DNA of 32,000 nucleotides from Nostoc sp. PCC 7120 = FACHB-418 (GTDB lineage: Bacteria; Cyanobacteriota; Cyanobacteriia; Cyanobacteriales; Nostocaceae): positions 90,001 to 122,000 of the forward strand of contig NC_003276.1 in assembly GCF_000009705.1 (NCBI RefSeq). Direction: 5' to 3'. How positions within the stretch are numbered: position 1 is the first letter of the stretch; every line of letters starts with the position of its first letter. Made by a program: the position numbers and the translations under genes. Shown here piece by piece: positions 1,698 through 32,000 of this stretch. Below the pieces are notes generated by a model, which saw only the letters and a program-made list of their open reading frames with translations, had not been told where the DNA came from and ran no database searches.

Positions 1698-1743
1698 ATC
1701 CTTATCTTCATTGGTAACACTACGTTCAATTTCTCGTAATCCT

Positions 1744-6608: not shown

Positions 6609-6654
6609 ATCCTTATCTTCATTGGTAACACTACGTTCAATTTCTCGTAATCCT

Positions 6655-7443
6655 CTAACTTTTTTTTTTCAATTCCTTTTTTGCATTTCTATCCGCCTCA
6701 TATATGGGTTTAATTGCTTCTTTCAGGTAATGGTAATGACATAAACCATGAGCAATTTTAGGTAATGCTAACCCAACAGCTTTACGAATTGATTGTTGTC
6801 CATCACTAACAACTCCATCAATTGGTACATCCAGTGTATTAGCCACTTCTAATAATAACGCTACTAAATCTTCATTCCTTGATGATAATAAAGTTTTAGC
6901 AAGTAAAATTTCTCCTGATAGACAATCTCGAATTACCCATAATACCTCATGTCCAATTTCTGGCTGCATCCCATCAATGGCTAATATCACCCGTCCTTGA
7001 TTAGCCACTATTGCTTTTAATCTTTTATGGTCTTTTAGCCATAAAGAAAGTAACTCGTCATATCTGTCAATTAAGTGTGTGACCGTTCGTTTACTTATAC
7101 ATATACCTTTTAATTCAAGGTGAGTGTGTATTTGAGGAACACTTCTATGTTCCTGGTAGCGTAATGCTCCTATATAAGCAATCACATCCAAACCAAATTC
7201 GTTCTGTGGTAGAGCGAGTGACCCTTCTTGCTCTGGTCGATATGCTTTTTTATACCGCATACATGACTTATTTTGACATCGCCGAATTTTTAGCTGTAGT
7301 TCTACTACCCCATTTAGCGTTCTTATATGTCGAGGATTATTGTATTCATTCCACATTGCTTGACCACACGAAGGGCATTTTTTTTGAACACAATCGAGTA
7401 CTTCAAACGATGTTGCTTCTGGTTTTAAACTTTTTCTTACCAA
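6655..7443 (-). CDS. transposase orfA, IS copy 2
   Basis: Identical to 1744..2532 except Q117K (ISQRT vs ISKRT) plus two synonymous changes. Confidence 0.8.
   Translation of the reverse strand: MVRKSLKPEATSFEVLDCVQKKCPSCGQAMWNEYNNPRHIRTLNGVVELQLKIRRCQNKSCMRYKKAYRPEQEGSLALPQNEFGLDVIAYIGALRYQEHRSVPQIHTHLELKGICISKRTVTHLIDRYDELLSLWLKDHKRLKAIVANQGRVILAIDGMQPEIGHEVLWVIRDCLSGEILLAKTLLSSRNEDLVALLLEVANTLDVPIDGVVSDGQQSIRKAVGLALPKIAHGLCHYHYLKEAIKPIYEADRNAKKELKKKS
6660..6669 (-). other. A10 homopolymer at the orfA/orfB junction, IS copy 2
   Basis: Same T10 run on the plus strand as 1749..1758. Confidence 0.45.
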
Positions 7444-8459: not shown

Positions 8460-9913
8460 CAATACCTCTGCCAAATTACGAGGGTTCAACACCCGTAGAA
8501 ACGGGATGAATGCGTCCTAAAGAAGTAAGCTTGGCAAAAATCTGGTTTAATAAAATAGGCTCAGGGATTTCGGGAAGCATTTTTAACATTTCACGGACAT
8601 ATCGAAAACCACTCTGGGTGAGCTTTAAGATCAATAATGCCGGAGTCAGGATTAAGGAGACGGAAATCAGATAGAAGATGATGGGATAAGTTGACCATAA
8701 AGAATGCTAGATTAACAGCATTAGTTACAGCAGTTTGACTTAAATTCATAAAATCTTCCAATCCCCAAAACTGCTTCGCATCACGAAAGTTAAACTCGAT
8801 TTGAAAGTGCAGTTTATAGTAATCAATTATCTTTTCGTATGACAACTTTAGGTCACTAGAAAATAGGATTACATGACTATGAGCATTAGTTTTAAGATTG
8901 GTTTTGACCAAAATAACTATATTCAGTGCTTGGGCAAATTCCTTGTGGAGTAAAGTAGCTTGATAAATATCAGTTTTGATATCGTCTTCAATGGTACTTT
9001 TACATAAATATTTATCAGGTATGTTACAGTAGTCAATCTTATCACCGTATTTACGACGAGAGCGACTATTGGAGTCAGGATGTTGATAGGGTATATACAA
9101 TGAGGAATCATGGCGCAACTTGGAAATTATGTGCAAGTTAACTTGCCGAACCATTTGCAAGGCATTATTGTTTCCAAAATGACCGTCTAAGACTAAGTAA
9201 GTTAGGGGGATAAAGTTAGCTATTAACTTGAACAACTCATTAATCATCTTCTTAATTCTTAGTAATTCAGATGTGAGAATTACTTCTGTTTTGTTTTTAT
9301 TTTTACTACCTTTTGGTCGTCCACGTCCACATATTTCTTTGGGTTTGATTTCTGTTGTTGGCGATACACTACTTTTTTCTACATCGCTCTTGATTACCTG
9401 TTCTATTTTAATCGGAAATGAGTGTCTTCGCTTCACACTTACTAATGATAATGTAAAAAAAGATAGCCCTAATATAGGTTTGCTGGCGAGGCTAGAAAAA
9501 AATCTATCCAGCCCATAAGTTTGTTTCCCTGATTTACTGATTACAACTTCATCTCCTGCCAGCAAATACACCTCATTTGCACGGAACAAATGCTTACGAA
9601 AAAATACCCAAAACAACGTTGCCCAAGGTATTACTGTCTGAAAGAATCTTAATATTGTCCGATAACTACCACCAGTCCCTGCCCAACGAGACATTCCCAA
9701 CATTGTGACTCTCCCGCTCATCGCTAACATCGCCAGGATTATCTGGTTCATTCGGCGCATCGTCGTCGCGTTGATCTGCGGTAGCAGGCATTGTAACAAT
9801 GATAGGATGTCTGGCATGGGTGGTTTGTAGTTTTTGAGTTGTCGTTGTGAGAGACAATAACTCTACTACAAAGCGCCCTACCTCTTTATGCTCTTATTTT
9901 GGCTAAGGTATTG
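8460..9913 (-). mobile_element. IS4-superfamily-like IS element (1454 bp), decayed
   Basis: Imperfect terminal inverted repeats match 19/23 by eye (CAATACCTCTGCCAAATTACGAG vs CAATACCTTAGCCAAAATAAGAG). It is flanked by the direct 6-bp AAATAA and carries one long transposase frame. Confidence 0.8.
8476..9817 (-). pseudogene. DDE transposase (IS4-superfamily type) with a 3' frameshift
   Basis: LVLDGHFGNN and YYKLHFQIEFNFRDAKQFWGLEDF fit the Y-2-R-3-E-6-K signature, except that H (CAC, 8807..8809) occupies the R position. The track ORF stops at 8591. A shifted frame continues as ...GFRYVREMLKMLPEIPEPILLNQIFAKLTSLGRIH... to the TAA at 8476, so an indel lies around 8608..8615. Confidence 0.7.
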
Positions 9914-17974: not shown

Positions 17975-19735
17975 ATGCTAAAAGATTTCTCTGGTCAAAA
18001 TCTCAGAGGTCGTTCGTTCAAAGGCGAAGACTTGGGCGGGGCAAACTTTAGCTATGCAGATATCCGAGGGGTAGATTTTAGTGGGTCTAATTTGAGCGGT
18101 GCAAACTTTAGTCATGCTGAAGCTGGGCTACCGTTATATTGGGCAATTGGATTGATTATAATTTCATCTTTATTGACAGCAGTTATAGGGATATGTTTAC
18201 TATTTACTCATATTGTATTAACAGCCATTCTTACGTTTTCTAATAATATCAATATTAGCTTTAAATTTGGCATAATTTGTTCAATTATATTTGCTGTTGC
18301 TTTTACTATTCATAAGAAATTTGTAGCAGGTTTAGAAGCACTTTGTTTGGTCTTTACTGTGGCAGTAGCTATGGCAGTAAGTACCAGTATTATTTTAGAC
18401 ATTACTGCCAATGCTAAAGTAAATGTTCTTGGGAATTTTGCCGTAGCAGTTGCTTTGACTGTGACTATCATTTTTATTATATTTTTTACTGTTGTTGGCA
18501 TTATGAGTATTGCGGTGAGTGCCGGAATTGCAATAGCAGTTTTGGAGTCTGAAAAATTTCTTGTTTTAATTTTTTTCACTATTATTGTCACTATTCTTAT
18601 TCTTTTCTCTTTCATTATCTCAGTTTTTAATATTTATGAAGCTGGAATTTTTACTGGAATTTTCGTGATTTTAAGTGCCTATATGGGAATATTTGTTACA
18701 ACTTCTAAAAAGTATGAGACTGGTATTAAAGAAATTTCCATAGCTGTTGCTGCTATGAAAGGCACTAAATTTCATTTAACCAACTTAAGTAATGCCAATT
18801 TCAGTCATGCCAAACTAAAAAATACAAACTTTGAAAAAGCTAACCTAACTAACGTCTGTTGGAATAATGCTAAAAAGCTTAAATATATTTATCCTATTAG
18901 AATTCATCAAGAGAATGGACAAGTAAATTCAGATAATATAGATTCCCATAAGAGCATTAACTTCACATTCAAAAAGGGGATTGTTTGGGAAGCTTTTTTG
19001 TCTACTTATAAAATAATTGTTGATAATGAAGGTGTCGAGCTAAATATTCAAAGTATTGAGAACAAGAATAATAATGTTTTAGTCATAAAAGTTCAAGTTC
19101 CTGAAGGAGCCAATAAAGCAAATATTTCTAATATTTTTAGACAAAAATACAAAAATGCACTGAAAGCTATAGAAGCGAAATACGAAGGAGAATTAAAAAA
19201 TAAAAACAATCAAATGACCATTTATCGTCAAGTTTATGAAGATAATTTACAACAAAATGCAAATTTGTTAAATATTATAAATAAAATGGCTACAAGTCAG
19301 TCTATAAATATTCAAAATATAGCTAAATCAGAAAGCGAATCTATGTCAGAAAGTTCTAAGAAACAATCTAGCTTTGATCTTAAAGGCGCTCAATTCGGTG
19401 GCGGTCTAGTCAACGCCGATACAGTAAATGCAAACCAAATCGGCGGTAACATCACCAACTACAACCCAGAGCAAAAGCAGAATCTCGCCCAAGCCGCAGC
19501 AGACATTCAGCAGCTTCTCAACCAACTGAGCCAAACCTACCCCACGACTACAACATCGGAGAAAATGAGCGTTGTGGCTAGGGCTGTAGATGAGATTGAG
19601 AGTAACCCAACATTAAAAGCACGGGTAATAGGTGCGTTGAAGGCTGGGGGAACCGAGGCGTTGAAGGAACTAATCGATAATCCTTTGATTAATATACTGC
19701 TGGCATCAATCGACGGGTGGCAAGATGCGGAATAG
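17975..19735 (+). CDS. pentapeptide-repeat / six-TM membrane protein with C-terminal shared motif (586 aa); candidate effector 1
   Basis: Pentapeptide runs occur at both ends of a ~200-aa hydrophobic block (~18130..18710): ANFSYADIRGVDFSGSNLSGANFSHA and TNLSNANFSHAKLKNTNFEKANLTN. A ~85-aa domain shared with the next gene follows, then a K/N/Q-rich stretch, then the motif AQFGGGLVNADTVNANQIGGNITN, then a ~90-aa helical tail. Confidence 0.85.
   Translation: MLKDFSGQNLRGRSFKGEDLGGANFSYADIRGVDFSGSNLSGANFSHAEAGLPLYWAIGLIIISSLLTAVIGICLLFTHIVLTAILTFSNNINISFKFGIICSIIFAVAFTIHKKFVAGLEALCLVFTVAVAMAVSTSIILDITANAKVNVLGNFAVAVALTVTIIFIIFFTVVGIMSIAVSAGIAIAVLESEKFLVLIFFTIIVTILILFSFIISVFNIYEAGIFTGIFVILSAYMGIFVTTSKKYETGIKEISIAVAAMKGTKFHLTNLSNANFSHAKLKNTNFEKANLTNVCWNNAKKLKYIYPIRIHQENGQVNSDNIDSHKSINFTFKKGIVWEAFLSTYKIIVDNEGVELNIQSIENKNNNVLVIKVQVPEGANKANISNIFRQKYKNALKAIEAKYEGELKNKNNQMTIYRQVYEDNLQQNANLLNIINKMATSQSINIQNIAKSESESMSESSKKQSSFDLKGAQFGGGLVNADTVNANQIGGNITNYNPEQKQNLAQAAADIQQLLNQLSQTYPTTTTSEKMSVVARAVDEIESNPTLKARVIGALKAGGTEALKELIDNPLINILLASIDGWQDAE
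19388..19459 (+). other. shared signalling-type motif, instance 1 (AQFGGGLVNADTVNANQIGGNITN)
   Basis: Read codon by codon in the frame of 17975..19735. Confidence 0.8.
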
Positions 19736-19772: not shown

Positions 19773-20882
19773 ATGGCGAATGAGGAGCATCTGGCGATAC
19801 TGAGACAGGGGGTGGAGGTTTGGAATGCGTGGAGAGAAAATAACCCAGATATAAATCCTGACCTTAGCTGTTTGAATTTTAATAAAATTGATTTAGATGG
19901 ATTTAATTTTAGTAATACTGTTATTTTTGGTTCTACTTTTGGCAGTTCTTCTCTCCGAAAAACTTTATTTACTAGAGCCTTTCTACAAAATACAGACCTT
20001 GCAGGCGTTGATTTAACTGGATCTAATTTGCGTGGAGCATTTCTCAATAAAGCTAATTTATTAGGTGCTAATTTGTGTCAGGTAGATTTAAGTTATGCTG
20101 ATCTTTCAGAAACTGATCTGAGTAGTAGCTGCCTGATAAAAGCCAAGTTACTTCAAACAAACCTTGTAAGAGCTTATCTGGCAGGAGCTAATCTTGTAGA
20201 TGCGGATCTCAGCCACGCTAATTTAATGTTAACTACGGCAGCGTACACCAATTTTGAAAGAGCAATATTAACTGGTGCTTGTATTGAAGCTTGGAATACT
20301 AATGAACGTACAAATTTCAATTTTGTGACTTGTGACTATATTTATCTTCGGCACGAACAACAAGAACGCCGCCCCAGCAGTGGTAACTTTGCCCCTGGCG
20401 AGTTCACCAAGTTATTCCAGAAATCTCTAGAAACCGTTGACCTAATCTTTCGCAATGGTATCGACTGGGATGCTTTCGCTTACTCCTTCAAAAAGGTAGA
20501 AGTCGAAAACCAAGGCGCACAATTGGATGTCCAAAGCATTGAAAAGAAAGGCGATGGCATTCTTGTAGTTAGAGTGGCTGTTGCCCCTGATGCAGATAAG
20601 GCGAAAATTCACAACGATTTCATGCAGGGGTATGAATTTGCGGCTAAGACATTGGAAGCACAGTATCAAGCAAGACTTGAAGATAAAGACAAAGTAATTA
20701 ATCAGCTATTTTCCACCATCGACCAGCAAAATCAGTTACTAGCTCAGACTGGCGATAAAGTTTCAATTTACTATCAACCGAACTCTCAGTTTGCAGGTGG
20801 CATAGTGGATGCCAATACTGTCGATGCACAGCAAATTGGTGGTAATATTCAAAACAATAACACTGAAGACTTCTCAAGTTGA
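19773..20882 (+). CDS. soluble pentapeptide-repeat protein with C-terminal shared motif (369 aa); candidate effector 2
   Basis: The opening ILRQGVEVWNAWRENNPDINPDLS and ~130 aa of A(D/N)LXX repeats are typical. The shared domain (DLIFRNGIDWDAFAYSFKKVEVENQGAQLDVQSIEKKGDGILVVRV...) and the motif SQFAGGIVDANTVDAQQIGGNIQN lie 9 codons before the stop. The stop is 3 nt before the next start. Confidence 0.85.
   Translation: MANEEHLAILRQGVEVWNAWRENNPDINPDLSCLNFNKIDLDGFNFSNTVIFGSTFGSSSLRKTLFTRAFLQNTDLAGVDLTGSNLRGAFLNKANLLGANLCQVDLSYADLSETDLSSSCLIKAKLLQTNLVRAYLAGANLVDADLSHANLMLTTAAYTNFERAILTGACIEAWNTNERTNFNFVTCDYIYLRHEQQERRPSSGNFAPGEFTKLFQKSLETVDLIFRNGIDWDAFAYSFKKVEVENQGAQLDVQSIEKKGDGILVVRVAVAPDADKAKIHNDFMQGYEFAAKTLEAQYQARLEDKDKVINQLFSTIDQQNQLLAQTGDKVSIYYQPNSQFAGGIVDANTVDAQQIGGNIQNNNTEDFSS
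20784..20855 (+). other. shared motif, instance 2 (SQFAGGIVDANTVDAQQIGGNIQN)
   Basis: Frame of 19773..20882; 9 codons from the stop. Confidence 0.8.
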
Positions 20883-20885
20883 CCC

Positions 20886-22841
20886 ATGCCGGACTCACAA
20901 GACCCGAAGCAAGTCAATAACAACGACTTACGCAATGCCCAGTTTGGAGGCGGGTTGATAAATGCTGAGAATGTCAATGCTGGCAGAATTGGCGGAGATA
21001 TTTGGAATATTTTCTTAGGACAGCAGACAACACCAATAGGCAATCCGGCTCGACCAAGGAACGAACGGATACTACTCGCCGCAGCTAAGGAAGAAGTTAC
21101 AGCGCGGTTAAGGCAATCTCTACATAATGCCGTGCTGATTAATTTAGGGAAGGAGTCACAACCCCAGCAGGTAAAACGCCCTTGGGATGCAGAAATAAAA
21201 ATCGGCTTGAAGCCGGCCGTTCCTCTTTCAGACACGACAACTATCTTGGAAGTTTTTAATTCCCCGGAAATTGCAGGAAAATTACTAATTTTGGGTGCGC
21301 CAGGGTCAGGTAAGACAACCACACAACTAGAACTGGCTCAAGAATTAGTTAAACGTGCAGAAGAGCAGTCTGATTATCCTGTTCCCGTTTTATTTAACTT
21401 ATCTTCTTGGAAAGATGATCGGCAATCTATAACTGATTGGTTGGTGGCTGAACTTAAATCTAAATATGGGGTTTCAAAAAAGCTTGGCCAAGAGTGGGTA
21501 GACAACCACCAATTACTACCATTACTTGATGGTTTAGACGAACTTGAACCACAACGTCAAGAACTCTGCGTTCATGCAATCAATCGATTTTTAGGAGGCG
21601 AAGATAGACCACTTTATTTAGCTATTTGTAGTCGGAGTGAGGAATATAGTAACTATGCGACTCAATTACAACTTAATGGTGCGATTTACTTACAGCCTTT
21701 AACTAACAACCAAATTTATGATTATTTAACTTCTATAAATTATATAGAACTGTGGTCAACTATCAGTAACGACTTAGATTTAATAGAGTTAGTAAAAACT
21801 CCCTTACTATTGGGCATTACTGTTCTAGCCTCTCAAGAAATATCTGTTGAAAAATGGCAGCATTTAACTTCTACAGCAGACCGGGTTCAATATTTGCTAG
21901 ATGTCTATATAGTACGGATGTTGACACGAAATATTAACAGTAGGACATATTTGAAGAACAAAACTCCTAATACTAGACAAACTCAAATGTGGCTTGTTTG
22001 GTTAGCCAAACAAACACAAAAGCAATCTAAAACTGAATTTTTAATTGAAGAAATACAGCCTAGTTATTTAAATGGCAGATTTGAAAATTTCAGTTATTAT
22101 TTTCTATATACTTTAAGCATATTCTCGATTTTTGGAATTGGTCTTGCTTTAATGATACATGATATATTAGCTAGTATTTTATTTATAATTTTTGAAATAT
22201 TTATGGGTTTGATTACAGGTCTAATTTTAGGGCTGATTTTAGATATGGAACCTAAATCGATAATTTTAGTAGAAAAACTCACTTTTTTCCCAATCAATGT
22301 AGATATTTTACTATTTTCTATATTTGTAACTATGTTGCCTTGGATGCTTTTATCAATTTCCTTAAAGATACCTTTAGGAAATTTTATACTGAATTTAATA
22401 ATAATTTTAGGTCTATTTTATGGTTCTCTTTCTAAAGAACCTGACCGAGTTATAGACAATAAAAAAGTTCCGAATCAAGGTATTTGGAAGTCCGGATTCA
22501 ATGCTGTTTTTTTAGGGCTTGTTGCAATAGGATCTTATGGGTTGATTTATGTATTCACTCATAACGAGATTTGGTGGCTATTTTTAGAGCCAGTATGGAG
22601 GCTAGGATTAGGGCTAACACTGGTGCTGACATGGGGTTTATTTTATGGTGGTGATGCGTGCATTCAACACTTTGCCCTTCGCCTTACCCTTTACTTAAAC
22701 GGACACATCCCCTGGAACTACGCCCGTTTCCTCGACTACTGCACCGAGCGTATGCTACTCCAGCGTGTCGGCGGCCGCTACCGCTTCATCCACAAATTGC
22801 TGCAAGACCACTTCGCCCAAATGGAGTTCAGGCGAGATTAA
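20886..22841 (+). CDS. NACHT-family STAND NTPase 1 with N-terminal shared motif and an embedded multi-TM region (651 aa)
   Basis: Walker A GAPGSGKTT (21294..21320), Walker B LLPLLDGLDEL, and the motif AQFGGGLINAENVNAGRIGGDIWN at residues 18-41. A hydrophobic block lies at ~22090..22670. The terminal YRFIHKLLQDHFAQ is typical of the end of NACHT modules. Confidence 0.9.
   Translation: MPDSQDPKQVNNNDLRNAQFGGGLINAENVNAGRIGGDIWNIFLGQQTTPIGNPARPRNERILLAAAKEEVTARLRQSLHNAVLINLGKESQPQQVKRPWDAEIKIGLKPAVPLSDTTTILEVFNSPEIAGKLLILGAPGSGKTTTQLELAQELVKRAEEQSDYPVPVLFNLSSWKDDRQSITDWLVAELKSKYGVSKKLGQEWVDNHQLLPLLDGLDELEPQRQELCVHAINRFLGGEDRPLYLAICSRSEEYSNYATQLQLNGAIYLQPLTNNQIYDYLTSINYIELWSTISNDLDLIELVKTPLLLGITVLASQEISVEKWQHLTSTADRVQYLLDVYIVRMLTRNINSRTYLKNKTPNTRQTQMWLVWLAKQTQKQSKTEFLIEEIQPSYLNGRFENFSYYFLYTLSIFSIFGIGLALMIHDILASILFIIFEIFMGLITGLILGLILDMEPKSIILVEKLTFFPINVDILLFSIFVTMLPWMLLSISLKIPLGNFILNLIIILGLFYGSLSKEPDRVIDNKKVPNQGIWKSGFNAVFLGLVAIGSYGLIYVFTHNEIWWLFLEPVWRLGLGLTLVLTWGLFYGGDACIQHFALRLTLYLNGHIPWNYARFLDYCTERMLLQRVGGRYRFIHKLLQDHFAQMEFRRD
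20937..21008 (+). other. shared motif, instance 3 (AQFGGGLINAENVNAGRIGGDIWN)
   Basis: Residues 18-41 of NACHT-1. Confidence 0.8.
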
Positions 22842-22927
22842 GAAAGAATTTGCATCTGTTGAACTCAAAAACTTGAGTGATATTATTTTCAGTAACAACG
22901 CTTAAGCTTGCCCAAATAAACTAATCC

Positions 22928-25078
22928 ATGCCAGACTCAGAAAAACCAAAGCAAGTCAACAATAATAATCTACAAAATGCCCAATTTGGTGGTGGGTTGA
23001 TTAATGCCGACACGGTGAACGCCCAAAGAATAGGTGGTGACATTTGGAATTTTTTCTTTGGGCAGCAGCTAGCACCAGAAGCAAACTTTTTAAGACCAGA
23101 AAATCAGAGACTAGTACTAGCTGATGTTAAGCATGAAGTTAATGGGCGACTGAAACAATCTCTACATAACACTGTGCTAATTAATCTGGGAAAAGAGTTA
23201 CAACTGCAACAAGTAAAAAGATATTGGGATGCGGAGATAAAAATTGGGACTAAACCACCTGAACCCGTTTCAGAGAATACAACTATCTTATCAGTTTTTG
23301 ATTCTGAAGAAATAGCCGGTGAATTGTTGATTTTAGGTGCGCCAGGAGCGGGTAAAACAACTACACAGTTAGAACTAGCACAAGCACTAATTAAGCAGGC
23401 TGAAGAAAACCCTACTTATCCTATACCAGTATTAATTAATCTTTCCTCTTGGAAAGATAAAAATCAACCAATTAGTGAATGGTTGGTAGTTGAACTCAAG
23501 TCCAAGTATGGTATTACAAAACAGCTTAGTCAGCATTGGTTAATAAATCGACAATTACTTCTTTTATTAGATGGTTTAGATGAAGTTAAACCAATATTTC
23601 AAGAGGCTTGTGTTAAATCTATTAATCAACTAGTGCGAGGAGAATATCGATCTTCATCTATAGTAATTTGCAGTCGTTCTCAAGAATATCAAAATTATAA
23701 AACTAACCTTCGGATTAACGGGGCAATTTGCTTAAAACCTTTAACTAAAAAGCAAATAAACAAATATCTCATTGAAATTAATAATGCTGATTTATGGGAA
23801 ACTATTAACAATGATTTCAATTTACTGGAGTTAGTTAAATCTCCCTTACTACTTAGTATTACCATTATAGCAGCAAGAGAAATATCTCTTAGTAAATGGC
23901 AGCATTTAGAGTCTACCCAAGAGCATCTTGAGCATTTGCTCAATGCGTATGTGCAGCGAATGTTAACAAGAGAGATTAATAGTAATTTATTTGTTAAAAA
24001 TAAGGCTCCTAATGCTGCGAGAACTTGCTTTTGGCTTGGATGGTTAGCGCAGAATTTACAAAGAGAATCACAAACTGAATTTTTAATTGAAAAAATGCAA
24101 CCATCTTGGTTAGCAGATAGTATTCTCAAAAAACAATATCGAGTTCAGGCTTACCTAATTGGAGGTCTTGTTGTATTATGTTTTAGTTTAGTTGTGGGTC
24201 TAATTGCAGGTCTAATTGGAGAACTGTTAGACATCCTTCAAGGATTCGGATTAATTGAAGGCTTAATTGCAGGTTTATGTATTGGTTTAATCTCTGCACC
24301 AGTTTTTGGTGTTTTTTTTGGATTAAACAAAGAAATAAAACCTATTGAGACTCTAATTTGGTCTTGGAAAAGAGCTAAATTGGGTTTTAAAAATGGTTTA
24401 GTTCTAGCTGCAAAGATTGGGATGTTTATTACAATTTTTTGCTTAATAATTGCCATTACTATTGATGTAATTTCTAATGGGGTAGCCATAAATTTTCATC
24501 GAACAATTGTGTTAATTTATGCAGTAATGTTTGGGCTAATATTTGACCTATTTTTTACGTTGCTCTTTGGTTTGCTATTGGGATTACTTTTTGCTCTAAA
24601 TGATGGACTTGTTAATTTGGAGATGAAAGCAAAAGTCACTCCAAATCAAGGTATCTCAAATTCAGTAATTAATGCTGGGGTCACTGGGATAATTCATGGA
24701 TTGAGCCTTAGTTTCTTTTTAGGGTTGATGAGTGGGTTAATCGGTTGGCTTAGTTTGTTGAGCCTAAAGATTAGCTTTCCTCAAGAAGCTGTATCAGCAG
24801 AAGCATGGTTCTCGACGACTTTAAATATTACTCTTTTTGCATCTATCACTGGACTCGTTTTTGGGTTAGTTAGTGGATTAATTAGCGGTAGAGTTTGTAT
24901 TGAACACTTTACTCTCCGCCTCATCCTTTACTGTAACGGCTACATCCCCTGGAATTACGCCCGTTTCCTCGACTACTGCACCGAGCGTATGCTGCTCCAG
25001 CGTGTCGGTGGCCGCTACCGCTTCATCCACAAACTGCTGCAAGACCATTTCGCGCAAATGGAGTTTAGGCAAGATTAA
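22928..25078 (+). CDS. NACHT-family STAND NTPase 2 (paralogue; 716 aa) with N-terminal shared motif and an embedded multi-TM region
   Basis: Walker A GAPGAGKTT (23336..23362), Walker B LLLLLDGLDEV, and the motif AQFGGGLINADTVNAQRIGGDIWN at residues 18-41. A hydrophobic block lies at ~24148..24890. The last ~45 aa are nearly identical to NACHT-1. Confidence 0.9.
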   Translation: MPDSEKPKQVNNNNLQNAQFGGGLINADTVNAQRIGGDIWNFFFGQQLAPEANFLRPENQRLVLADVKHEVNGRLKQSLHNTVLINLGKELQLQQVKRYWDAEIKIGTKPPEPVSENTTILSVFDSEEIAGELLILGAPGAGKTTTQLELAQALIKQAEENPTYPIPVLINLSSWKDKNQPISEWLVVELKSKYGITKQLSQHWLINRQLLLLLDGLDEVKPIFQEACVKSINQLVRGEYRSSSIVICSRSQEYQNYKTNLRINGAICLKPLTKKQINKYLIEINNADLWETINNDFNLLELVKSPLLLSITIIAAREISLSKWQHLESTQEHLEHLLNAYVQRMLTREINSNLFVKNKAPNAARTCFWLGWLAQNLQRESQTEFLIEKMQPSWLADSILKKQYRVQAYLIGGLVVLCFSLVVGLIAGLIGELLDILQGFGLIEGLIAGLCIGLISAPVFGVFFGLNKEIKPIETLIWSWKRAKLGFKNGLVLAAKIGMFITIFCLIIAITIDVISNGVAINFHRTIVLIYAVMFGLIFDLFFTLLFGLLLGLLFALNDGLVNLEMKAKVTPNQGISNSVINAGVTGIIHGLSLSFFLGLMSGLIGWLSLLSLKISFPQEAVSAEAWFSTTLNITLFASITGLVFGLVSGLISGRVCIEHFTLRLILYCNGYIPWNYARFLDYCTERMLLQRVGGRYRFIHKLLQDHFAQMEFRQD
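22979..23050 (+). other. shared motif, instance 4 (AQFGGGLINADTVNAQRIGGDIWN)
   Basis: Residues 18-41 of NACHT-2. Confidence 0.8.
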
Positions 25079-25159
25079 AAGAAATTTCGTTTCAGTTGAC
25101 CTAAAAACAAAGGTGATAGTATTTACAATAACAACGCTTAAGCCTGCCCAAACTGACCT

Positions 25160-25327
25160 ATGCCGGACTCCCAAGACCCAAAGCAAGTCACCAATAACAA
25201 TGCACCCAATTGTCAGTTTGGTGGAGGGTTGATTAATGCTAAGTCTGTCAAGGCAGAGCGGATAAGATGCTACATTTACAACACTTATCCACCCTGCGTT
25301 TGCGTTAGACAATTACAATACTTGTAG
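25160..25327 (+). pseudogene. truncated 5' end of a third NACHT paralogue
   Basis: MPDSQDPKQVTNNNAPNCQFGGGLINAKSVKAERI... parallels the first ~35 residues of both NACHT genes, and the preceding spacer matches the spacer before NACHT-2. Similarity is lost by ~25275, and the frame runs into the 3' end of the convergent giant gene. Confidence 0.6.
25211..25282 (+). other. shared motif, instance 5, decayed (CQFGGGLINAKSVKAERIRCYIYN)
   Basis: Lies in the truncated third NACHT start. The first two thirds are conserved; the IGGDIWN part is degraded. Confidence 0.6.
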
Positions 25328-28300
25328 AGTTAATCGCAATTTTATTTGACAGAGTGGCAATTTGAACGGCAGTATTCGCCCCTATACCGTCAACATCAAA
25401 CAACAGAGCGCCAGTTGCTTGATTGTAGATAAAGCGATCGCTTCCATCTTGTGCAGATGAACCCAAGACAAATTGTGATGCGTCCAGATTACCAGCTACA
25501 AGCCCACTACCGAACCCAGCAGCATTGACACGAATTTTGTCATCAGCAACGCTAAAGTCTGTAATGGTGTCAATGCCATCAGCAAGAGAAGAGAAGCTAA
25601 AAATATCTTTCCCACTACCACCAGTTAAGCGATCGTTACCGCTACCACCGACGAGAATATCATCACCGTCATTGCCAGTTAAGTTGTCATTACCTCCGAA
25701 ACCAAAAATGGTATCGTTGCCAGCACCACCAGAGACATTATCACTGCCATTGCCACCTATAAAAGTATCGTCGCCACCTCCCAGGTCAACAATTGCATTT
25801 TGGTAGCTTCCTAATAGTGTAATTACATCATTACCGCCTTGAGCGTTATTAACTGGCTCATCACCCTTCATGTTGATGAAGAACTTGCTATTATTCATCG
25901 TTACTGTAATGTTATCGTCGCCGTAGCCTCCAGTAATCTTGCCATCAGAACGTGGGGAGTTGTTGGGATTACTATCATTATCCCAGTTGGCAGCAAAAGT
26001 AACGTTGATTGTATCGTTGCCTAAACCACCATGCGCTCCTAAGATTCCATCTGGATCGGTAATTGCATCATCTCCATCACCGCCAAACAACCGATCAAAT
26101 CTTCCAATCCCACCATCTATTGTGTCATTCCCAGCTAAACCTTCTATATAATCATCACCACCAAAGCCGTTGAGAACATCTGCACTAGATGTACCAGAAA
26201 GGGAATTATTAGTATCATTACCAGGATTGATATTGGAGGCTGTTACTGTCAACGCAAAAATGTCTGTAACAGTAGTTCCTTGATTATCGCTGGCTGTAAC
26301 TTTGATATTCAAAATACCCGCATTGTTAGTAGTAGGATTGCCGCTAAAGGTACGAGTATCAGTATTAAAATTCAACCAACTTGGTAAGGGATCACCATTT
26401 TCTAAGGTGGTGCTGTAGCTGAGGATATCACCAGTATCTACTTCAGAGAAAGTATTTTCGGGAATGGTAAAGGTGAAGGTATTATTGGCTGCAACGGCTT
26501 GATCAGCGATTGCATTCGCTAGTATCGGTGCGTCATTGGTATTAGCAACTGTCAAGGTAAAGACATCACTAACATTTGCACTAGACTTATCAGTTGCAAT
26601 AACTTTAATGTTGAGTGTGCCAACCTCGCTATTAATTGGCGTACCAGCAAATGTGCGGTTAGTGGGATTAAACGTTAACCAACTTGGTAAAGCCGCACCT
26701 TCTTCTAAAGTTGCCGAGTAAGCTAGGATATCGTCTGCATCTACATCAGCAAAGGTATTCACCGGGATGATGAAGCTGAAGGTACTGTCTTCAGTGGCAG
26801 TTTGGTCAGCGATCGCATTCTCTAGTGTGGGTGCATCATTAGTATTAAGGACTGTCAGGGTAAAAACATTACTAGCACTTGCTTGGGATTTGTCAGTAGC
26901 GATGACTTTAATACTGAGTGTATCAACTTCGCTGTTGGTTGGTGTGCCGCTAAAGGTTCTAGTTGCTGCATCAAAGGTTAACCAACTTGGTAATTCATCA
27001 CCATTTTCTAATGTCGCTGTATAAGTTAGGGTGTCGCCTGTATCAACGTCGTTGAAAGCATCAGCAGGAATTTGGAAGTTGAAAGCTGTGTCTTCTGTCG
27101 CTGTTTGGTTTGCGATCGCATTTGCTACAGTTGGTGCATCATTAGTGTTAATTACTGTCAGGGTGAAGATATCACTTAGGCTTGCACCAGCATTATCAGT
27201 TGCGGTGACTTTAATATTGATTGTGCCAACTTCATCGTTAGTTGGTGTACCGCTAAATGTACGAGTGCTGGGATTGAAGTTTAACCAATTTAGTAAATCT
27301 GCACCGTCTGCTAATGTTGCACTGTAAGTTAGGGTATCGCCTGCATCTACATCAGCAAAGGTATTAGCTGGGATAGTGAAGGTAAAGGCGCTGTCTTCAG
27401 TTGCAGTTTGATTGGCAATCGCATTTTCTAATGTCGGTGCGTCATTAGTATCACTATTAGCCACCGTCAGGGTGAAGACATCACTTACACTTGCACCAGC
27501 ATTGTCAGTTGCGGTAACTCTGATATTGACTGTGCCAACTGAGTTGTTAGTGGGTGTACCAATAAATGTGCGGGTGCTGGGATTGAAGCTTAACCAATTT
27601 GGTAAATTTGCACCGTCTGCTAATGTTGCGCTGTAAGTTAGGGCATCACCTGCATCTACATCAGTAAAGGTATTAGCTGGGATAGTGAAGGTAAAGGCTG
27701 TGTCTTCGGTTGCAGTTTGATTGGCGATCGCATTTGCTAGAGTTGGTGCATCATTAACAGCCGTAATCTCTAAAGTAATAGTTTGAGATGCTGTACCACC
27801 TTTGCCGTCACTGACGGTGTAACTGAAACTTCCAGCACTGCCATTGGCGTTGACAACTGAGACAAAAACTAAGCTTGTCAGTTGTTGAGTAGTTAGGGTT
27901 GTGTTAACAGTGACAACTGTGTTATCAGGTAAGCGAATTATGCCTTTGCTTGCTTCTGGAACGGCGGTTATAGTGATAGTTAAGAGATCGTTATCTGTAT
28001 CAGTTGGGGTTGCGATCGCTAAAGGAGTAGTTACAGAATCTTCTGCAACTGTCAAAACTTTATTTGCCTGGGTTACAGGAGCCTGATTTGCGGAATTACC
28101 AAACAGTTTGTTTAAAATATCAGTACCAGAAAGGTTATCAACCTTTTCAATAAATCCTGTACCTGCACTACTGGAATTGAAGAAATTTATTATACTTAAA
28201 TCACTTTCTGGGGTTGTGATACCATCTTGATTTAAGTCAATGAGTAGCGTGGTTCCAAGTCTTTGTATTCCGGCCGTACCAATAGTTGGTGTAGATAGCG

Positions 28301-31300
28301 AGAGATTGATATCTGTAAGGTCGAGAGTATCGTTTTCTCCGTCATCTTCAATTTTGCTGCCTCCAGCAGTTTGGGCTGCCAAGATATAAGTATCATTGCC
28401 TAAACCAGCTTTGAGAGTATCTGCACCGCCGCCACCTGTGAGTTTATCATCAAGATTGCCACCTAATAATTCATCACCGTAGCGAGTTCCAGTAATATCA
28501 AAACGTTCGATATTACTGTAGCGAACATGACTTGGCCCCCAAGTAGAAATTTCACCACTTCCGGTGGCTAAGTCTAAAGAGTTATAGCGAACGCCGATAT
28601 CAACGTAAGAAGACAGAGCAAGGGAACCGTAAAGCCCGTGATTGCTTGTTTCATCACGATTAACTGTAGTAACGAGAGTTGCTTGTCCAGTTTTATAAGG
28701 ATCTGCGACGTATAAGCCGTATGAACCATAACCTTGATTATCTGCATTAATAGCTTTGATAAACGCTACTTTTGCTCCATCAGCAGCTAACACTGGCTCA
28801 GATCCACCAACAACCCTAAAATCATAGCTTTCTGCTACTTGCTGAATTTCTGTACTGTTTGTGCTACTAACAGATAGGAAATATCTGTCTTGCCAGATAG
28901 CTTTTATTCCATCACTACTGGATAAGCTAAGATTGCCGTCCACTAATGATTTTACGACTGGAAGACTGGTACTGGTACTAGCTGACCAAATGCCATATTT
29001 TTCTCCTTGATATCCAGCCCAGATAATTTGAGAACCATTTTCTGAGAGAAAGCTTTTAGTAGAACTTTGGGTTATCTCGCGGATATTTGTACCATCCGTA
29101 TTGGCAACCAAAAGTTGATTCCCATTGTTCCAAGAAACTTGACTGCCATCACCTGAAAGGGACAAGCTGTATATATAGCCGTTGATATTATTCAGATTAA
29201 TCCTAATCTTTTCAGTTCCGTTGGTATTAGCTACATAAACCCGCCATCCGTCACTCCAAGCTATCTTTTCGCCGTCTGTTGAGAGCGCAATTTCAGTGGC
29301 AATTTCATCAATTTTTACAAGGCCACCAGAATCATCTATTTTTTTGATCCATAGACCATTAGCTGGGTCGTTATAGTTTATATACGTGTAATAAGCATAA
29401 GTTGTACCGTCAGCAGAAAGAGCAAATTTATCACTAACAGAATTGGTTTCTCTAATTTTTAGTGGAGTTCCCAAACCGTAGGCATTACCGATGAAAAACT
29501 TTTGAAGATAGTTACCTGATGTGCCAGAGAGAGTCCTCCAAGCTACGGCACGAGTATTTAAATTAGAGTAGTCCAACACTAAAACATCTGTGCCTGCACC
29601 GCCATCAACAACATCATTACCCCAACCCGGAGTCAGGGTATCGTTGCCGTTTCCTCCCTGGAGTGAATCATTGCCATCTTCACCGTTGAGGAAATCGTTG
29701 CCATCCTGCCCCCATAAGGTGTCATTACCAGCACCACCACTCAAGGTATCGTTACTTAACCAACCATCAATAAAGTCATCTGCCGCGCTACCAGAAATCG
29801 TATCATCGCCAACTTGTAATTTGCTGAGAATCTCAGCACCAGCTAAATTAGCGACGGTTTCAATAAAACCTGTTCCAGCACCAGTTCCAACAGTATCAAA
29901 GAAGTTGAGAATGGTGAGGTCAGTTTTGGAAGCAGCAATTCCGTCTTTGTTGAGGTCAATTATTAAGCTTGTACCAGCCCGTCTCATCCCGAAAATTCCT
30001 GTTGTTGGAACTGCTAAGGAGAGATCAGCATCTGTAATTCTTGGGGTATTCGTAGCGCCAGGATTCCTTGTTGTCAGCCTTAAAGTATCTGTACCCCCAG
30101 CATCCTCGATTTGACTTCCGCCAGCATTTTGAGTATCGAGAATATAAATATCATCGCCTAAGCCCGCTTTGAGGGTATCTGCACCACCGCCACCCATAAG
30201 TGAATCATCAAGGTTGCCGCCGAATAACTCATCGCCATAGCGAGTTCCGATAATGTCGAACCTTTCAAAATTGCTGTAGCGGATGCGACTTGGCCCCCAA
30301 GTGTAAATTTCACCGCTACCTGTAGCTGGGTCAAAGGAGTTATAGCGAACGCCAAGATCAACATAGCTAGATAAAGCATGACCTCGACCAATACCTATAT
30401 TGGGTGAAGAAGCATCAATGAGAATTTGAGGCTCTATGCCATCTATGTCACCTACGTACAGAGAATAGTCGGAACCATTAAATTTAGTAAAAACAACTCT
30501 TCTGCTGTCTCCTGCTAGAGATTGTTGGGCAAATTCTCCAACTTCTTCGGTGTTAGGAACAACCCAGAAGCGAGAACCATCTGTAGTAGCTGCATAGAGA
30601 TTGGTTGAAGCGTAGCCGGCTCCTTGATAACCTGCCCAAACAACTGTAGAACCATCAGCAGATATAGAGGGGTTAATATTATACCCATAAAGATTACCTG
30701 AAAGTTCTCTGATGTTAGTGCCATCTGTATTAGCAACCCATACCCCACCTGGGCCATACCCTCCATCCTGAGACCAAGTAATTTTAGAACCATCGGCAGA
30801 AAGATCGAGTTCACGAACACCACCGCTACCGGTAGGTATGTTAATCTGTCTTAAATTTTTACCATCAGCGTTAGCAATGAAAATTGTGTAGGTAAATTTG
30901 TTGTCGTTACGTTTACTACGTAACCACGCGATAGTGCTACCATCCTCTGAAATAGTCGCTAAGTAGTCACCATCGCCATAGCCAATGTTTATACTTAACT
31001 TGGTCAGTTGTCGAACTTGAGTTCCGTTAGTATTAGCAATCCAAATACTATCCCCTTGACTCCAAACAACTTTGCTGCCATCTTCTGAAAGCAGAGGTTG
31101 ATAAACCTGATTATTAGGAATGACTCTCACGGCCGGGTCTGAGCTATGAATCTTCTTAACCCAAAGACCTTGATTGCCACTACCATTGCTTCCCAATATT
31201 CCAGAACCTGCAACCGTTAACCCATCTGCCGAAAGAGTAGCATGATAATTGCCAGATACATTTATATCAGTCTTGATGGGTGCGCCAATCCCATAAGCAT

Positions 31301-32000
31301 TAGCGACATAGACAAACCAATCGCTAGTATTTGGATCTAGTTCTGACCAAGCGACAGCCTGCGTGGGTAAAGAAGAATAATCAATGACTAAGGTATCTGT
31401 ACCAGTACCCCCATCAATGACATCATCTCCCCAGCCAGGGCTGAGTCTGTCATCGCCTGCACCACCACTAATAAAATCGTTACCCTCGCCACCATCAAAT
31501 TCATTATTGTCCTCATCACCAATTAAGGTATCGTCATATCGAGAACCAACAATTTGTTCGATAGATTGAAAGACATCATCGGCTGCATCTCCCGTTGATA
31601 CCTGAGTTACTAAGTTAATAGAGATAGCACTGGTAGCACTTGTATAACTAGCAGTATCAAAGCCTGCACCACCATTAAGGATGTCTGCACCTGCACCACC
31701 ATCTAACCAATCATCACCATCATCGCCATAAACGAAATCATCCCTATCACCACCATAAAGACGATCCCAATCTGCACCTCCACGAATTGTGTCACTCCCA
31801 CTACCTCCGTAGATTAAATCTTCTCCAGCACCGCCTTTTAAGTCGGCGGAAATTTCAATATCTGGTTTGATCTCAATAGTGTCATTTTTTGTACCGCCAT
31901 CAGCAATTATCTTGCTAACACCACTATAAGTCTGTGGAATGTTAAACGCAGAAACAGTCAATTTTCCATCGGTTGTGAAAACGGTAAAAACTTCTGCACC
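25305..32000 (-). CDS. giant RTX-type calcium-binding exoprotein with TolB/PD40-like beta-propeller modules and cadherin-like repeats (>2218 aa, 5' end outside the window)
   Basis: The frame stays open upstream of the track's TTG to the window edge. Many GGxGxD nonapeptide repeats occur at the N-terminal region, mid-protein and C-terminal region. Repeated ...SADGSKITWSQ...VWVANTDGTNIRE... blades are present. There are five NDAPT...FTLTV repeats. The tail ...DKIRVNAAGFG...DRFIYNQATGALLFDVDG... is typical of T1SS-secreted RTX proteins. Confidence 0.9.
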   Translation of the reverse strand, partial: GAEVFTVFTTDGKLTVSAFNIPQTYSGVSKIIADGGTKNDTIEIKPDIEISADLKGGAGEDLIYGGSGSDTIRGGADWDRLYGGDRDDFVYGDDGDDWLDGGAGADILNGGAGFDTASYTSATSAISINLVTQVSTGDAADDVFQSIEQIVGSRYDDTLIGDEDNNEFDGGEGNDFISGGAGDDRLSPGWGDDVIDGGTGTDTLVIDYSSLPTQAVAWSELDPNTSDWFVYVANAYGIGAPIKTDINVSGNYHATLSADGLTVAGSGILGSNGSGNQGLWVKKIHSSDPAVRVIPNNQVYQPLLSEDGSKVVWSQGDSIWIANTNGTQVRQLTKLSINIGYGDGDYLATISEDGSTIAWLRSKRNDNKFTYTIFIANADGKNLRQINIPTGSGGVRELDLSADGSKITWSQDGGYGPGGVWVANTDGTNIRELSGNLYGYNINPSISADGSTVVWAGYQGAGYASTNLYAATTDGSRFWVVPNTEEVGEFAQQSLAGDSRRVVFTKFNGSDYSLYVGDIDGIEPQILIDASSPNIGIGRGHALSSYVDLGVRYNSFDPATGSGEIYTWGPSRIRYSNFERFDIIGTRYGDELFGGNLDDSLMGGGGADTLKAGLGDDIYILDTQNAGGSQIEDAGGTDTLRLTTRNPGATNTPRITDADLSLAVPTTGIFGMRRAGTSLIIDLNKDGIAASKTDLTILNFFDTVGTGAGTGFIETVANLAGAEILSKLQVGDDTISGSAADDFIDGWLSNDTLSGGAGNDTLWGQDGNDFLNGEDGNDSLQGGNGNDTLTPGWGNDVVDGGAGTDVLVLDYSNLNTRAVAWRTLSGTSGNYLQKFFIGNAYGLGTPLKIRETNSVSDKFALSADGTTYAYYTYINYNDPANGLWIKKIDDSGGLVKIDEIATEIALSTDGEKIAWSDGWRVYVANTNGTEKIRINLNNINGYIYSLSLSGDGSQVSWNNGNQLLVANTDGTNIREITQSSTKSFLSENGSQIIWAGYQGEKYGIWSASTSTSLPVVKSLVDGNLSLSSSDGIKAIWQDRYFLSVSSTNSTEIQQVAESYDFRVVGGSEPVLAADGAKVAFIKAINADNQGYGSYGLYVADPYKTGQATLVTTVNRDETSNHGLYGSLALSSYVDIGVRYNSLDLATGSGEISTWGPSHVRYSNIERFDITGTRYGDELLGGNLDDKLTGGGGADTLKAGLGNDTYILAAQTAGGSKIEDDGENDTLDLTDINLSLSTPTIGTAGIQRLGTTLLIDLNQDGITTPESDLSIINFFNSSSAGTGFIEKVDNLSGTDILNKLFGNSANQAPVTQANKVLTVAEDSVTTPLAIATPTDTDNDLLTITITAVPEASKGIIRLPDNTVVTVNTTLTTQQLTSLVFVSVVNANGSAGSFSYTVSDGKGGTASQTITLEITAVNDAPTLANAIANQTATEDTAFTFTIPANTFTDVDAGDALTYSATLADGANLPNWLSFNPSTRTFIGTPTNNSVGTVNIRVTATDNAGASVSDVFTLTVANSDTNDAPTLENAIANQTATEDSAFTFTIPANTFADVDAGDTLTYSATLADGADLLNWLNFNPSTRTFSGTPTNDEVGTINIKVTATDNAGASLSDIFTLTVINTNDAPTVANAIANQTATEDTAFNFQIPADAFNDVDTGDTLTYTATLENGDELPSWLTFDAATRTFSGTPTNSEVDTLSIKVIATDKSQASASNVFTLTVLNTNDAPTLENAIADQTATEDSTFSFIIPVNTFADVDADDILAYSATLEEGAALPSWLTFNPTNRTFAGTPINSEVGTLNIKVIATDKSSANVSDVFTLTVANTNDAPILANAIADQAVAANNTFTFTIPENTFSEVDTGDILSYSTTLENGDPLPSWLNFNTDTRTFSGNPTTNNAGILNIKVTASDNQGTTVTDIFALTVTASNINPGNDTNNSLSGTSSADVLNGFGGDDYIEGLAGNDTIDGGIGRFDRLFGGDGDDAITDPDGILGAHGGLGNDTINVTFAANWDNDSNPNNSPRSDGKITGGYGDDNITVTMNNSKFFINMKGDEPVNNAQGGNDVITLLGSYQNAIVDLGGGDDTFIGGNGSDNVSGGAGNDTIFGFGGNDNLTGNDGDDILVGGSGNDRLTGGSGKDIFSFSSLADGIDTITDFSVADDKIRVNAAGFGSGLVAGNLDASQFVLGSSAQDGSDRFIYNQATGALLFDVDGIGANTAVQIATLSNKIAINSTSIVIV
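26241..27755 (-). repeat. five tandem ~303-bp coding repeats (cadherin-like / putative Ig-type domains) inside the giant gene
   Basis: The NDAP(T/I) unit boundary recurs with period ~303 nt, visible as ggtgc(a/g)tcatt on the plus strand at ~26528, 26831, 27133, 27436 and 27745. Units 1 and 2 are the most similar to each other. Confidence 0.85.

Follow-up and report, generated by a model that had tools for sequence, protein, structure and literature searches.

We analysed a 32,000-nt stretch of DNA from Nostoc/Anabaena sp. PCC 7120 (contig NC_003276.1, positions 90,001 to 122,000; hereafter the window, with position 1 at its first letter) and found in it two adjacent, plasmid-borne genes, N1 and N2, for NACHT NTPases whose regulatory winged-helix domain (WHD) appears to be split by membrane helices. 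In both proteins a block of six predicted transmembrane (TM) helices is inserted, very probably between the first strand (b1) and the second helix (a2) of the WHD. In an AlphaFold2 (AF2) model of N1, helix a1 and strand b1 precede the block, and a2, a3 and the wing follow it. A first-pass annotation of this DNA, made from the letters alone, had suggested that the membrane block sits inside the STAND module rather than being appended to it; our results bear this out and place the block within the winged helix.

The NACHT core and the split winged helix

Both N1 and N2 are intact STAND NTPases of the NACHT clade. They match the Pfam NACHT family (PF05729) with 35.2 and 43.5 bits, respectively, the gathering score being 26.7. 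Across a 142-sequence alignment, the Walker A residues G137, G140, G142 and K143 are invariant, as are D215 and E219 of the sequence LLDGLDE. The latter two belong to the D[GAS]hDE sequence after Walker B, which is the NACHT signature in the definition of Kibby et al. As judged from these sequences, the catalytic residues of both proteins look intact. The AF2 model of N1 was built with a 142-sequence alignment and has a mean predicted local distance difference test score (pLDDT) of 79.9 and a predicted template-modelling score (pTM) of 0.75. In this model the strands and helices of the nucleotide-binding domain (NBD, residues 132-270) and of helical domain 1 (HD1, residues 274-347) are unbroken, and the TPL motif of HD1 is present, as in animal NLRs. 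A Foldseek search of the PDB with the model returned NOD2 as the top match (5irm, E = 9e-7), followed by NLRC4 (4kxf), NLRP3 (7alv) and NAIP5, with E values from 9e-7 to 1e-4. Also, as stated in the first-pass annotation, neither N1 nor N2 has matches to TPR, WD40 or LRR repeats. Each protein stops 57 residues past the hydrophobic block.

Beyond HD1, whose helices extend to residue 347, the model shows a helix (363-379), a strand (384-385), six TM helices, a helix (612-621), a hairpin (625-628/631-634) and a last helix (637-645). About 50 residues, forming one helix and one short strand, separate HD1 from TM1, and the last TM helix (569-604) extends unbroken into a2 through CIQHFALRLTLYLNG. 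The order of the elements is a1-b1-(block)-a2-a3-b2-b3, and the winged helix is therefore incomplete upstream of the block, where only one helix and a two-residue strand are found. In the second half of the N1 WHD, IQHFALRLTLYLNG (a2) is followed by YARFLDYCTE (a3), LQRV/RYRF (the wing), the histidine of FIH and KLLQDHFAQ. The tail is modelled with pLDDT values of 85-92 over most of residues 590-649. In a first AF2 run, with a 77-sequence alignment, the tail had remained below 50, and this was mended by adding a second, more distant subfamily. Moreover, strand 384-385 was modelled only when the 625-634 hairpin was modelled too. The Y.F.H...FA motif, which had been taken for the end of a winged helix, indeed falls after the block, in the hairpin region of the model; the part of this assignment that concerns sequence fared less well, as the alignment to the canonical wing is weak.

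The two flanks of the block are conserved throughout the family described below. Head and tail could be separated in 70 sequences, whose consensus reads WL.WLA...SQT(E/V)FLIE.MQP.WL before the block and CIQHF.LRL.LY.NG.IPWNYARFLDY.TER.FLQ(R/K)VGG(R/G)Y(R/I)FIH..L.EHFA after it. When mutual information with average product correction (MI-APC) was computed over 258 non-redundant pairs of heads and tails, the top inter-flank pair joined E384 (in b1) to R633 (in the wing). At these two positions (145 pairs), glutamate or aspartate occurs with arginine in 60 pairs, and valine, isoleucine, leucine or methionine occurs with isoleucine or valine in 74. This covariation fits a salt bridge between b1 and b3 that may be replaced by a hydrophobic pair. 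Several relatives carry further domains after the tail, namely WD40 repeats (P0080, P0081 and L022), TPR repeats (L025, L046 and L032) or a zinc ribbon (L036 and L066). The tail therefore closes the NACHT module itself rather than a domain appended to it.

The membrane block, its relatives and its variation

The evidence for TM helices consists of hydropathy, of the AF2 helices and of loop charge statistics. For the hydropathy analysis, a dynamic-programming segmentation replaced a cruder TM counter that gave many odd counts. The segmentation places six helices in N1 (406-424, 427-452, 459-484, 487-511, 540-557 and 565-581) and six in N2 (410-437, 440-466, 491-515, 527-556, 588-613 and 634-652). 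The AF2 model of N1 likewise has six long helices in the block (398-423, 427-451, 472-492, 497-514, 531-559 and 569-604), mostly with pLDDT values of 60-82. The several TM helices that had been expected are thus predicted in both proteins, and the earlier estimates of the block limits, about 22090..22670 and 24148..24890, agree with those found here. The G+C counts of 13/60 and 11/60 given for 22081..22200 are exact. Among the blocks of relatives, six helices is the mode (149 of 255 non-redundant blocks); the number ranges from 2 to about 10 across the family and is even in 64-76% of the blocks, depending on the parameters.

The loops of the 149 six-TM blocks fall into two kinds. Loops 1, 3 and 5 are short (median 5-6 residues, with 0.7-0.8 K+R each), and loops 2 and 4 are longer (median 24 residues, with 4.5 and 3.5 K+R, respectively). 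From these lengths and charges, and by the positive-inside rule, the NTPase, loops 2 and 4 and the tail are predicted to be cytoplasmic; both halves of the WHD and the two conserved loops would then lie on the same side of the membrane. Periplasmic loops of about 5-6 residues rule out a sizeable periplasmic sensor domain. The conserved positions of the block form islands in loops 2 and 4. The PNQGI island that had been noticed in both proteins is confirmed as KKVPNQGIWKSGFNA in N1 and KVTPNQGISNSVINA in N2; in the form K..PNQGIW.S..NA it is found in loop 4 of 129 of the 149 six-TM blocks, and across the family its residues N530, Q531 and I533 each reach a conservation of at least 90%. A second island, I.P.E.L.WSW, is found in loop 2 of 88 of these blocks. 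The composition of the relatives' blocks is of low complexity (L 17%, G 15%, I 13%), and GxxxGxxxG occurs 4.4 times per 100 residues of block.

A survey of relatives for the same inserted block, which the first-pass annotation had proposed for cyanobacterial NACHT proteins, recovered at least 386 of them in a scan of one genome per species, in cyanobacteria and beyond. The best 80 of these, at least 386 in all, come from Nostocales, Oscillatoriales, Leptolyngbya-like cyanobacteria, Pseudanabaena and Crocosphaera, together with two Chloroflexi and two archaea. Many family members are plasmid-borne. At the N-terminus, relatives carry CHAT, a Ser/Thr kinase, a kinase with a cyclase, AAA_35, EAD1, EAD10, nSTAND1, or a short motif of 23 residues. 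The Chloroflexi proteins (L045 and L054) and the archaeal ones (L076, from Methanocrinis, and L080, from ANME-2c) have the same split-WHD NACHT, and the two archaeal proteins have two extra TM helices at the N-terminus and no effector domain there.

The block evolves in a manner different from that of its flanks. The earlier statement that the blocks of N1 and N2 are far more divergent than the flanks proved correct: the cores are 62% identical, the blocks 30% over aligned columns (23% of the longer block) and the tails 92%, as compared over a 52-residue segment of the 57-residue tail. Among 84 Nostocales members (3486 pairs), the mean identity is 72% for the core, 86% for the tail and 29% for the block, and the identities of core and block are hardly correlated (r = 0.08). 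In 42% of the pairs with cores at least 90% identical (n = 19), the blocks are less than 35% identical. Pairs with near-identical cores also differ in block length (82 vs 292 residues, 125 vs 200 residues), which ranges from 82 to 369 residues across the family. On these sequence comparisons, within the Nostocales the block changes in length and sequence nearly independently of the NTPase core. In the Trichormus orthologue P0039, core and block are 100% identical to those of N1, and the tail differs at 6 of 52 residues.

The TM-coding DNA of both genes contains 12-nt micro-repeats resembling GGTCTAATTGCA, which encode G-L-I-x; slippage at these repeats could plausibly underlie the large variation in block length. 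Taken together, the patterns seen in the block fit slippage combined with exchange or conversion between paralogues, with selection for diversity unproven. We also considered a diversity-generating retroelement, and set it aside: the blocks vary by length, without an A-specific substitution pattern. No reverse-transcriptase-like open reading frame (ORF) was noticed among the ORFs of the window, in which no dedicated search was made.

The gene array, its pentapeptide-repeat partners and the codon usage of the tail

N1 and N2 are preceded by two genes for pentapeptide-repeat proteins, PP1 and PP2. The four genes are arranged head to tail on the + strand, with gaps of 37, 3 and 86 nt, and this layout is operon-like; their products correspond to BAB78208-BAB78211. 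A scan for promoters and terminators gave the same counts as in shuffled sequences. In PP1, the pentapeptide-repeat protein is itself interrupted, as judged by hydropathy, by a multi-TM block of its own (about 195 residues, 50-245). Searches with PP1 and PP2 matched only pentapeptide-repeat families, with no match in PADLOC, and the NCBIfam and PADLOC defence models gave no match above noise. The positions of the genes and of their parts are collected in Table 1.

Table 1. Positions of the genes, motifs and domain parts of the array, in nucleotides of the window.
Feature	Position	Strand	Remarks
PP1	17975..19735	+	pentapeptide-repeat protein, 586 aa; Pfam Pentapeptide 70 bits
PP1 motif	19391..19459	+	aa 473-495, 91 aa from the C-terminus
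PP2	19773..20882	+	soluble pentapeptide-repeat protein, 369 aa; stop 3 nt upstream of the N1 start codon
PP2 motif	20787..20855	+	QFAGGIVDANTVDAQQIGGNIQN, aa 339-361, ends 8 aa before the stop
N1	20886..22841	+	NACHT NTPase gene, 651 aa, BAB78210.1
N1 N-terminal motif	20940..21008	+	QFGGGLINAENVNAGRIGGDIWN, aa 19-41
N1 NTPase core, Walker A to Walker B	21294..21542	+	invariant columns, Foldseek matches
N1 Walker A	21294..21320	+	GAPGSGKTT
N1 Walker B with NACHT signature	21513..21542	+	LLPLLDGLDE
N1 winged helix, first half	21990..22070	+	a1 WLVWLAKQTQK, b1 TEFLIE, then IQPSYL; AF2 H363-379, E384-385; family-conserved
N1 inserted membrane block	22077..22655	+	aa 398-590; six TM helices as three hairpins; G+C 30%
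12-nt micro-repeats, N1 and N2	22198..22247, 24177..24313	+	GGTCTAATTGCA-like, in TM-coding DNA
N1 loop-4 island	22461..22505	+	KKVPNQGIWKSGFNA; conserved, predicted cytoplasmic
N1 winged helix, second half	22662..22841	+	IQHFALRLTLYLNG (a2, continuous with TM6); AF2 H569-604, H612-621, E625-628, E631-634
N2	22928..25078	+	NACHT NTPase gene, 716 aa, BAB78211.1
N2 N-terminal motif	22982..23050	+	aa 19-41
N2 Walker A	23336..23362	+	GAPGAGKTT
N2 Walker B with NACHT signature	23555..23584	+	LLLLLDGLDE
N2 winged helix, first half	24032..24112	+	WLGWLAQNLQRESQTEFLIEKMQPSWL; by homology to N1
N2 inserted membrane block	24137..24892	+	aa 404-655; six predicted TM helices, GxxxG-rich
N2 loop-2 island	24332..24367	+	EIKPIETLIWSW; conserved
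N2 loop-4 island	24632..24676	+	KVTPNQGISNSVINA; conserved
N2 winged helix, second half (tail)	24899..25078	+	90% DNA identity to the N1 tail
Third N-type gene copy, truncated	25160..25327	+	55-codon ORF retaining the N-terminal motif region MPDSQDPKQVTNNNAPNCQFGGGLINAKSVKAERI

The 23-residue motif QF[GA]GG.[IV].A..V.A..IGG[DN]I.N is common to all four proteins, and the gene order and the motif recur at seven other Nostocales loci (L001, L002, L003, L008, L012, L014 and L029). The motif has hydrophobic residues at every fifth position, suggesting that it corresponds to about one coil of a pentapeptide beta-helix. Some homologues show a sub-threshold match to the beta-roll family PF21300. The region that PP1 and PP2 share between the repeats and the motif has no match in Pfam, NCBIfam or PADLOC. 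As far as the sequences indicate, N1 and N2 probably interact homotypically with PP1 and PP2 through the motif, in a beta-solenoid or amyloid-like manner.

The array has also been duplicated in part. The segment made of the N1 tail, the spacer and the start of the following gene (22659..23077) is repeated at 24896..25309, where the third, truncated copy of an N-type gene begins. The remnant of this copy overlaps the 3' end of a convergent gene (25305..31961, - strand) for a protein of 2218 residues with many tandem repeats, cadherin-like and calcium-binding (GGxGxD) in appearance. Elsewhere in the window, on the - strand, lie two near-identical copies of an insertion sequence (951..2532 and 5862..7443), each with ORFs of 248 and 262 residues that differ by one residue between the copies, and, near them, a transposase-like ORF of 408 residues (8591..9817). 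This part of the plasmid has the look of a mobile, accessory region.

The last 57 codons of N1 and N2 (22668..22838 and 24905..25075) differ from the rest of the genes in codon usage. Their G+C content at third codon positions (GC3) is 0.74 in N1 and 0.72 in N2, as against 0.23-0.32 in the remainder of the genes, and the frequency of C at third positions is 0.59 in the tail and 0.04-0.10 elsewhere. The GC-rich end had been noticed from the final 130 nt of N1, for which the count is 73/130 in place of the earlier figure of about 75. That the jump is measured at third positions means that it does not follow from amino-acid content. It is common to the closest Nostocales relatives and absent from most other clades. 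RNA structure was rejected as its cause, since the tails are less structured than shuffled sequences (z of +0.74 and +1.87). The tail may be a recombination arm subject to GC-biased gene conversion, or its most conserved residues may be under selection for accuracy.

Possible roles of the block and relation to known systems

The WHD of NLRs locks the ADP-bound, inactive state, and the invariant histidine of FIH, H636, presumably corresponds to the ADP-contacting histidine in the structures of NLRC4 and NLRP3. The most likely reading, with a probability of about 0.45, is that the block is a signal-input element. With a helix bundle inside the WHD, the hinge that turns the NTPase on and off would be coupled to whatever state the membrane bundle is in, perhaps in the way in which TM2 of a chemoreceptor acts as a piston on its cytoplasmic helix. 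A change within the membrane, such as a phage or other foreign membrane protein, altered lipid packing or altered membrane potential, would shift TM6/a2; this shift would free the WHD clamp and lead to nucleotide exchange and oligomerisation. The output would then pass through whatever occupies the N-terminal position, here the motif, to PP1 and PP2, and in relatives CHAT, kinase, cyclase or EAD modules. It is also conceivable, and in our estimate unlikely, that NLRs of this family have in the block an intramembrane equivalent of hypervariable repeat sensors. The block would then consist of stacked TM hairpins of the glycine-zipper kind, made up of 12-nt GLIx units and diversified by slippage and by exchange of cassettes between paralogues. 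Homology arms would be provided by the conserved NACHT core and by the 57-codon tail, whose aberrant C-ending codon usage (GC3 of 0.73 vs 0.25) would be the mark of frequent gene conversion. Each cassette would be specific for other phage or foreign membrane proteins and would act on the NTPase switch directly, by way of the TM6-a2 helix.

Sensing of envelope or membrane perturbation, which the first-pass annotation had put forward, would be one form of signal input, and the data agree about equally well with an anchor or an effector. Several observations weigh against a signal-input block inserted in the WHD. The chief argument against a pure sensor role comes from the members that have both the block and WD40 or TPR repeats. 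In these relatives the block is no simple substitute for repeats, and the phrase of the first-pass annotation, a block in place of a conventional repeat sensor, is not borne out by the family. Also, the fast change of the block could reflect weak constraint and 12-nt slippage rather than diversifying selection. With respect to the insertion point, the covariation of E384 with R633 is confounded by the existence of two subfamilies, the pairing of b1 with the wing is deduced from the secondary structure of the model, and the contact of H636 with the nucleotide would likewise follow from the model. Alignment to NACHT profiles, which had been proposed as a check, reached the NBD and HD1 and did not bridge the WHD. 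In searches of PDB sequences with N2 (phmmer) and with family hidden Markov models (HMMs), either full (A1) or with the block deleted (A2), nothing reached the WHD; the profile matches lay in the Walker A region (RFC and RuvBL) and, in NLRC4, from Walker B to HD1 (E 0.005-0.1). An hhalign comparison of A2 with a canonical NACHT from L013 gave a probability of 98.4%, over NBD-HD1 only, and no winged-helix family was detected when the spliced WHD sequences were compared with Pfam, even with E values of up to 10 admitted. The profile of the tail had a single match in the PDB, the WHD segment SYSFIHLCFQEFFAAM of NLRP1 (E = 3.8). When the WHD alone was aligned by hhalign to the canonical, TM-free NACHT from L013, the local mode paired MLLQRVGGRYRFIHKLLQDHFAQ with LLIKRAQGIWSFSHLTFQEYLAA, a score equalled by 5 of 200 shuffles, and the global mode gave no information; the alignment of the tail with the canonical wing motif is thus weak but specific at the level of sequence. 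A protein search with the 57-residue tail alone returned only fragments of less than 100 residues and no insert-free relatives.

The lack of a significant winged-helix alignment for the tail or the spliced WHD in the PDB HMM, Pfam and hhalign comparisons, together with Foldseek alignments that end before the block, after about 340-370 columns, would be expected of a simple C-terminal fusion, in which the NACHT module is complete before the block and the tail is an unrelated small domain. We regard such a fusion as very improbable, given that the 50 or so residues between HD1 and TM1 hold just one helix and one short strand, and that the tail supplies precisely the missing a2-a3-wing with the Y.F.H...FA motif. 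Head and tail, moreover, co-vary and are conserved together from cyanobacteria to archaea, and in several members repeats come after the tail. That there is no real membrane domain, and that the block is a decaying or low-complexity stretch or the genes are pseudogenes, is hardly credible. The AT-rich, low-complexity sequence, the truncated third copy next to the array and the annotation of a truncated, 594-residue version of N2 in another PCC 7120 assembly might suggest this, but both reading frames are intact, hundreds of species have the same architecture and 149 of 255 relatives' blocks the same six-helix layout, with regular, positive-inside loop lengths and charges. Moreover, the islands are conserved and the long AF2 helices are mostly modelled at pLDDT 60-82.

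A block that only anchors or localises a NACHT signalosome on the inner side of the membrane, close to PP1 or to sites of phage entry, is a possibility that we consider somewhat unlikely. The trigger would then be sensed by the cytoplasmic loops, the NACHT surface or the C-terminal repeats, and the hypervariability of the block would express low constraint on low-complexity helices of G, L and I encoded by slippage-prone 12-nt repeats. Conservation limited to the cytoplasmic loops, helix numbers from 2 to about 10 with minimal periplasmic loops, the presence of WD40 or TPR repeats alongside the block in some members, and a partner, PP1, that is itself a polytopic membrane protein are all in agreement with an anchor. 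However, an anchor could be placed at either terminus, and insertion into the regulatory WHD, with TM6 running into a2, would be an odd choice for it, yet is strictly conserved across phyla; moreover, most members have no other candidate sensor. The block could also be an effector, a pore or ion leak formed when oligomerisation into a NACHT ring gathers the glycine-zipper helices of many protomers and so aborts infection, in the manner of the ZAR1 resistosome, PifA or Tmn. The frequency of GxxxGxxxG (4.4 per 100 residues), the lack of an enzymatic N-terminal effector in N1, N2 and the archaeal members, and the precedent of Tmn, a membrane-embedded P-loop NTPase that works through its membrane part (PMC13001434), speak for this. 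Against it, many members already have CHAT, kinase or cyclase effectors at the N-terminus, N1 and N2 have an adaptor-like motif paired with neighbouring genes, and most members would be left without a sensor. Also, an effector would be expected to have a constant length, and blocks of 82-369 residues are found on near-identical cores, so that a pore-forming block seems to us distinctly improbable.

Proteins of this kind are already in print. Kibby et al. 2022/2023 ('Bacterial NLR-related proteins protect against phage') sort the sensors of bacterial NACHT proteins into five types, of which TM regions are class 4, mentioned in one sentence and without anatomy. N1 and N2, like the class 4 proteins and those described by Kaur et al. 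(2020, 2021), are NACHT proteins with D[GAS]hDE and several TM segments at the sensor position, and are members of this kind; Table S1 of Kibby et al. holds no 'TM+' architecture strings, and the match to their exact clade is by description. Both the Kibby-class NACHTs and the family of N1 and N2 have variable effector or adaptor modules at the N-terminus (EADs, caspase-like, kinase, cyclase) and are especially common in multicellular cyanobacteria, whose genomes hold many paralogues. What appears to be new is the insertion point between b1 and a2, the three-hairpin plan, the two conserved loops, the uncoupling of block and core, and the pentapeptide-repeat partners.

With the animal NLRs NOD2, NLRC4, NLRP3 and NAIP5, N1 and N2 share the NBD-HD1(-WHD) fold, Walker A and B, the TPL motif and the wing motif Y.F.H...(E/D)(F/H)FA of the WHD. 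They differ in having no LRR and in a WHD that is broken by about 190-250 residues of membrane helices; to our knowledge, animal NLRs touch membranes only peripherally, through lipidation or polybasic patches. The KAP and YobI/Tmn NTPases are, like N1 and N2, P-loop NTPases of signalling or defence with internal rather than terminal TM helices. Tmn is a proven anti-phage membrane NTPase, and YobI has two TM helices inside the P-loop domain itself (PMC13001434). These NTPases, however, belong to other families, with TM helices in or beside the P-loop domain; in N1 and N2 nothing interrupts the P-loop domain or HD1, and the insert of N1 begins at residue 398, in the WHD.

The N-terminal motif recalls the amyloid-signalling pairs of NLRs, that is, NWD2/HET-S of fungi and the bacterial BASS (Dyrka et al. 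2020; BASS11 Bab/Agp, preprint). As in these, a short motif rich in G, N and Q stands at the N-terminus of the NLR and recurs in a protein encoded next to it (here PP1 and PP2), at the C-terminus of that protein or towards it. The partners differ, being pentapeptide-repeat proteins with or without TM helices and not Bell/HeLo, TIR or CHAT proteins, and no known death effector domain was found in PP1 or PP2. Motif and synteny together have the genomic signature of NLR-associated amyloid signalling.

If the block is only an anchor, its position would be an anatomical footnote to the list of Kibby et al. Should it take part in the switch, the family has a wider bearing. Its hypervariable region is made of membrane helices rather than soluble repeats, a kind seldom thought of in immune receptors. 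The array also suggests that, in filamentous cyanobacteria, pentapeptide-repeat proteins act downstream of NLRs as their partners. The way in which NLR-type switches respond to events at the membrane is still debated, NLRP3 being the best-known case, and a widespread family whose regulatory winged helix is wired into a membrane bundle makes the coupling between membrane and NTPase testable.

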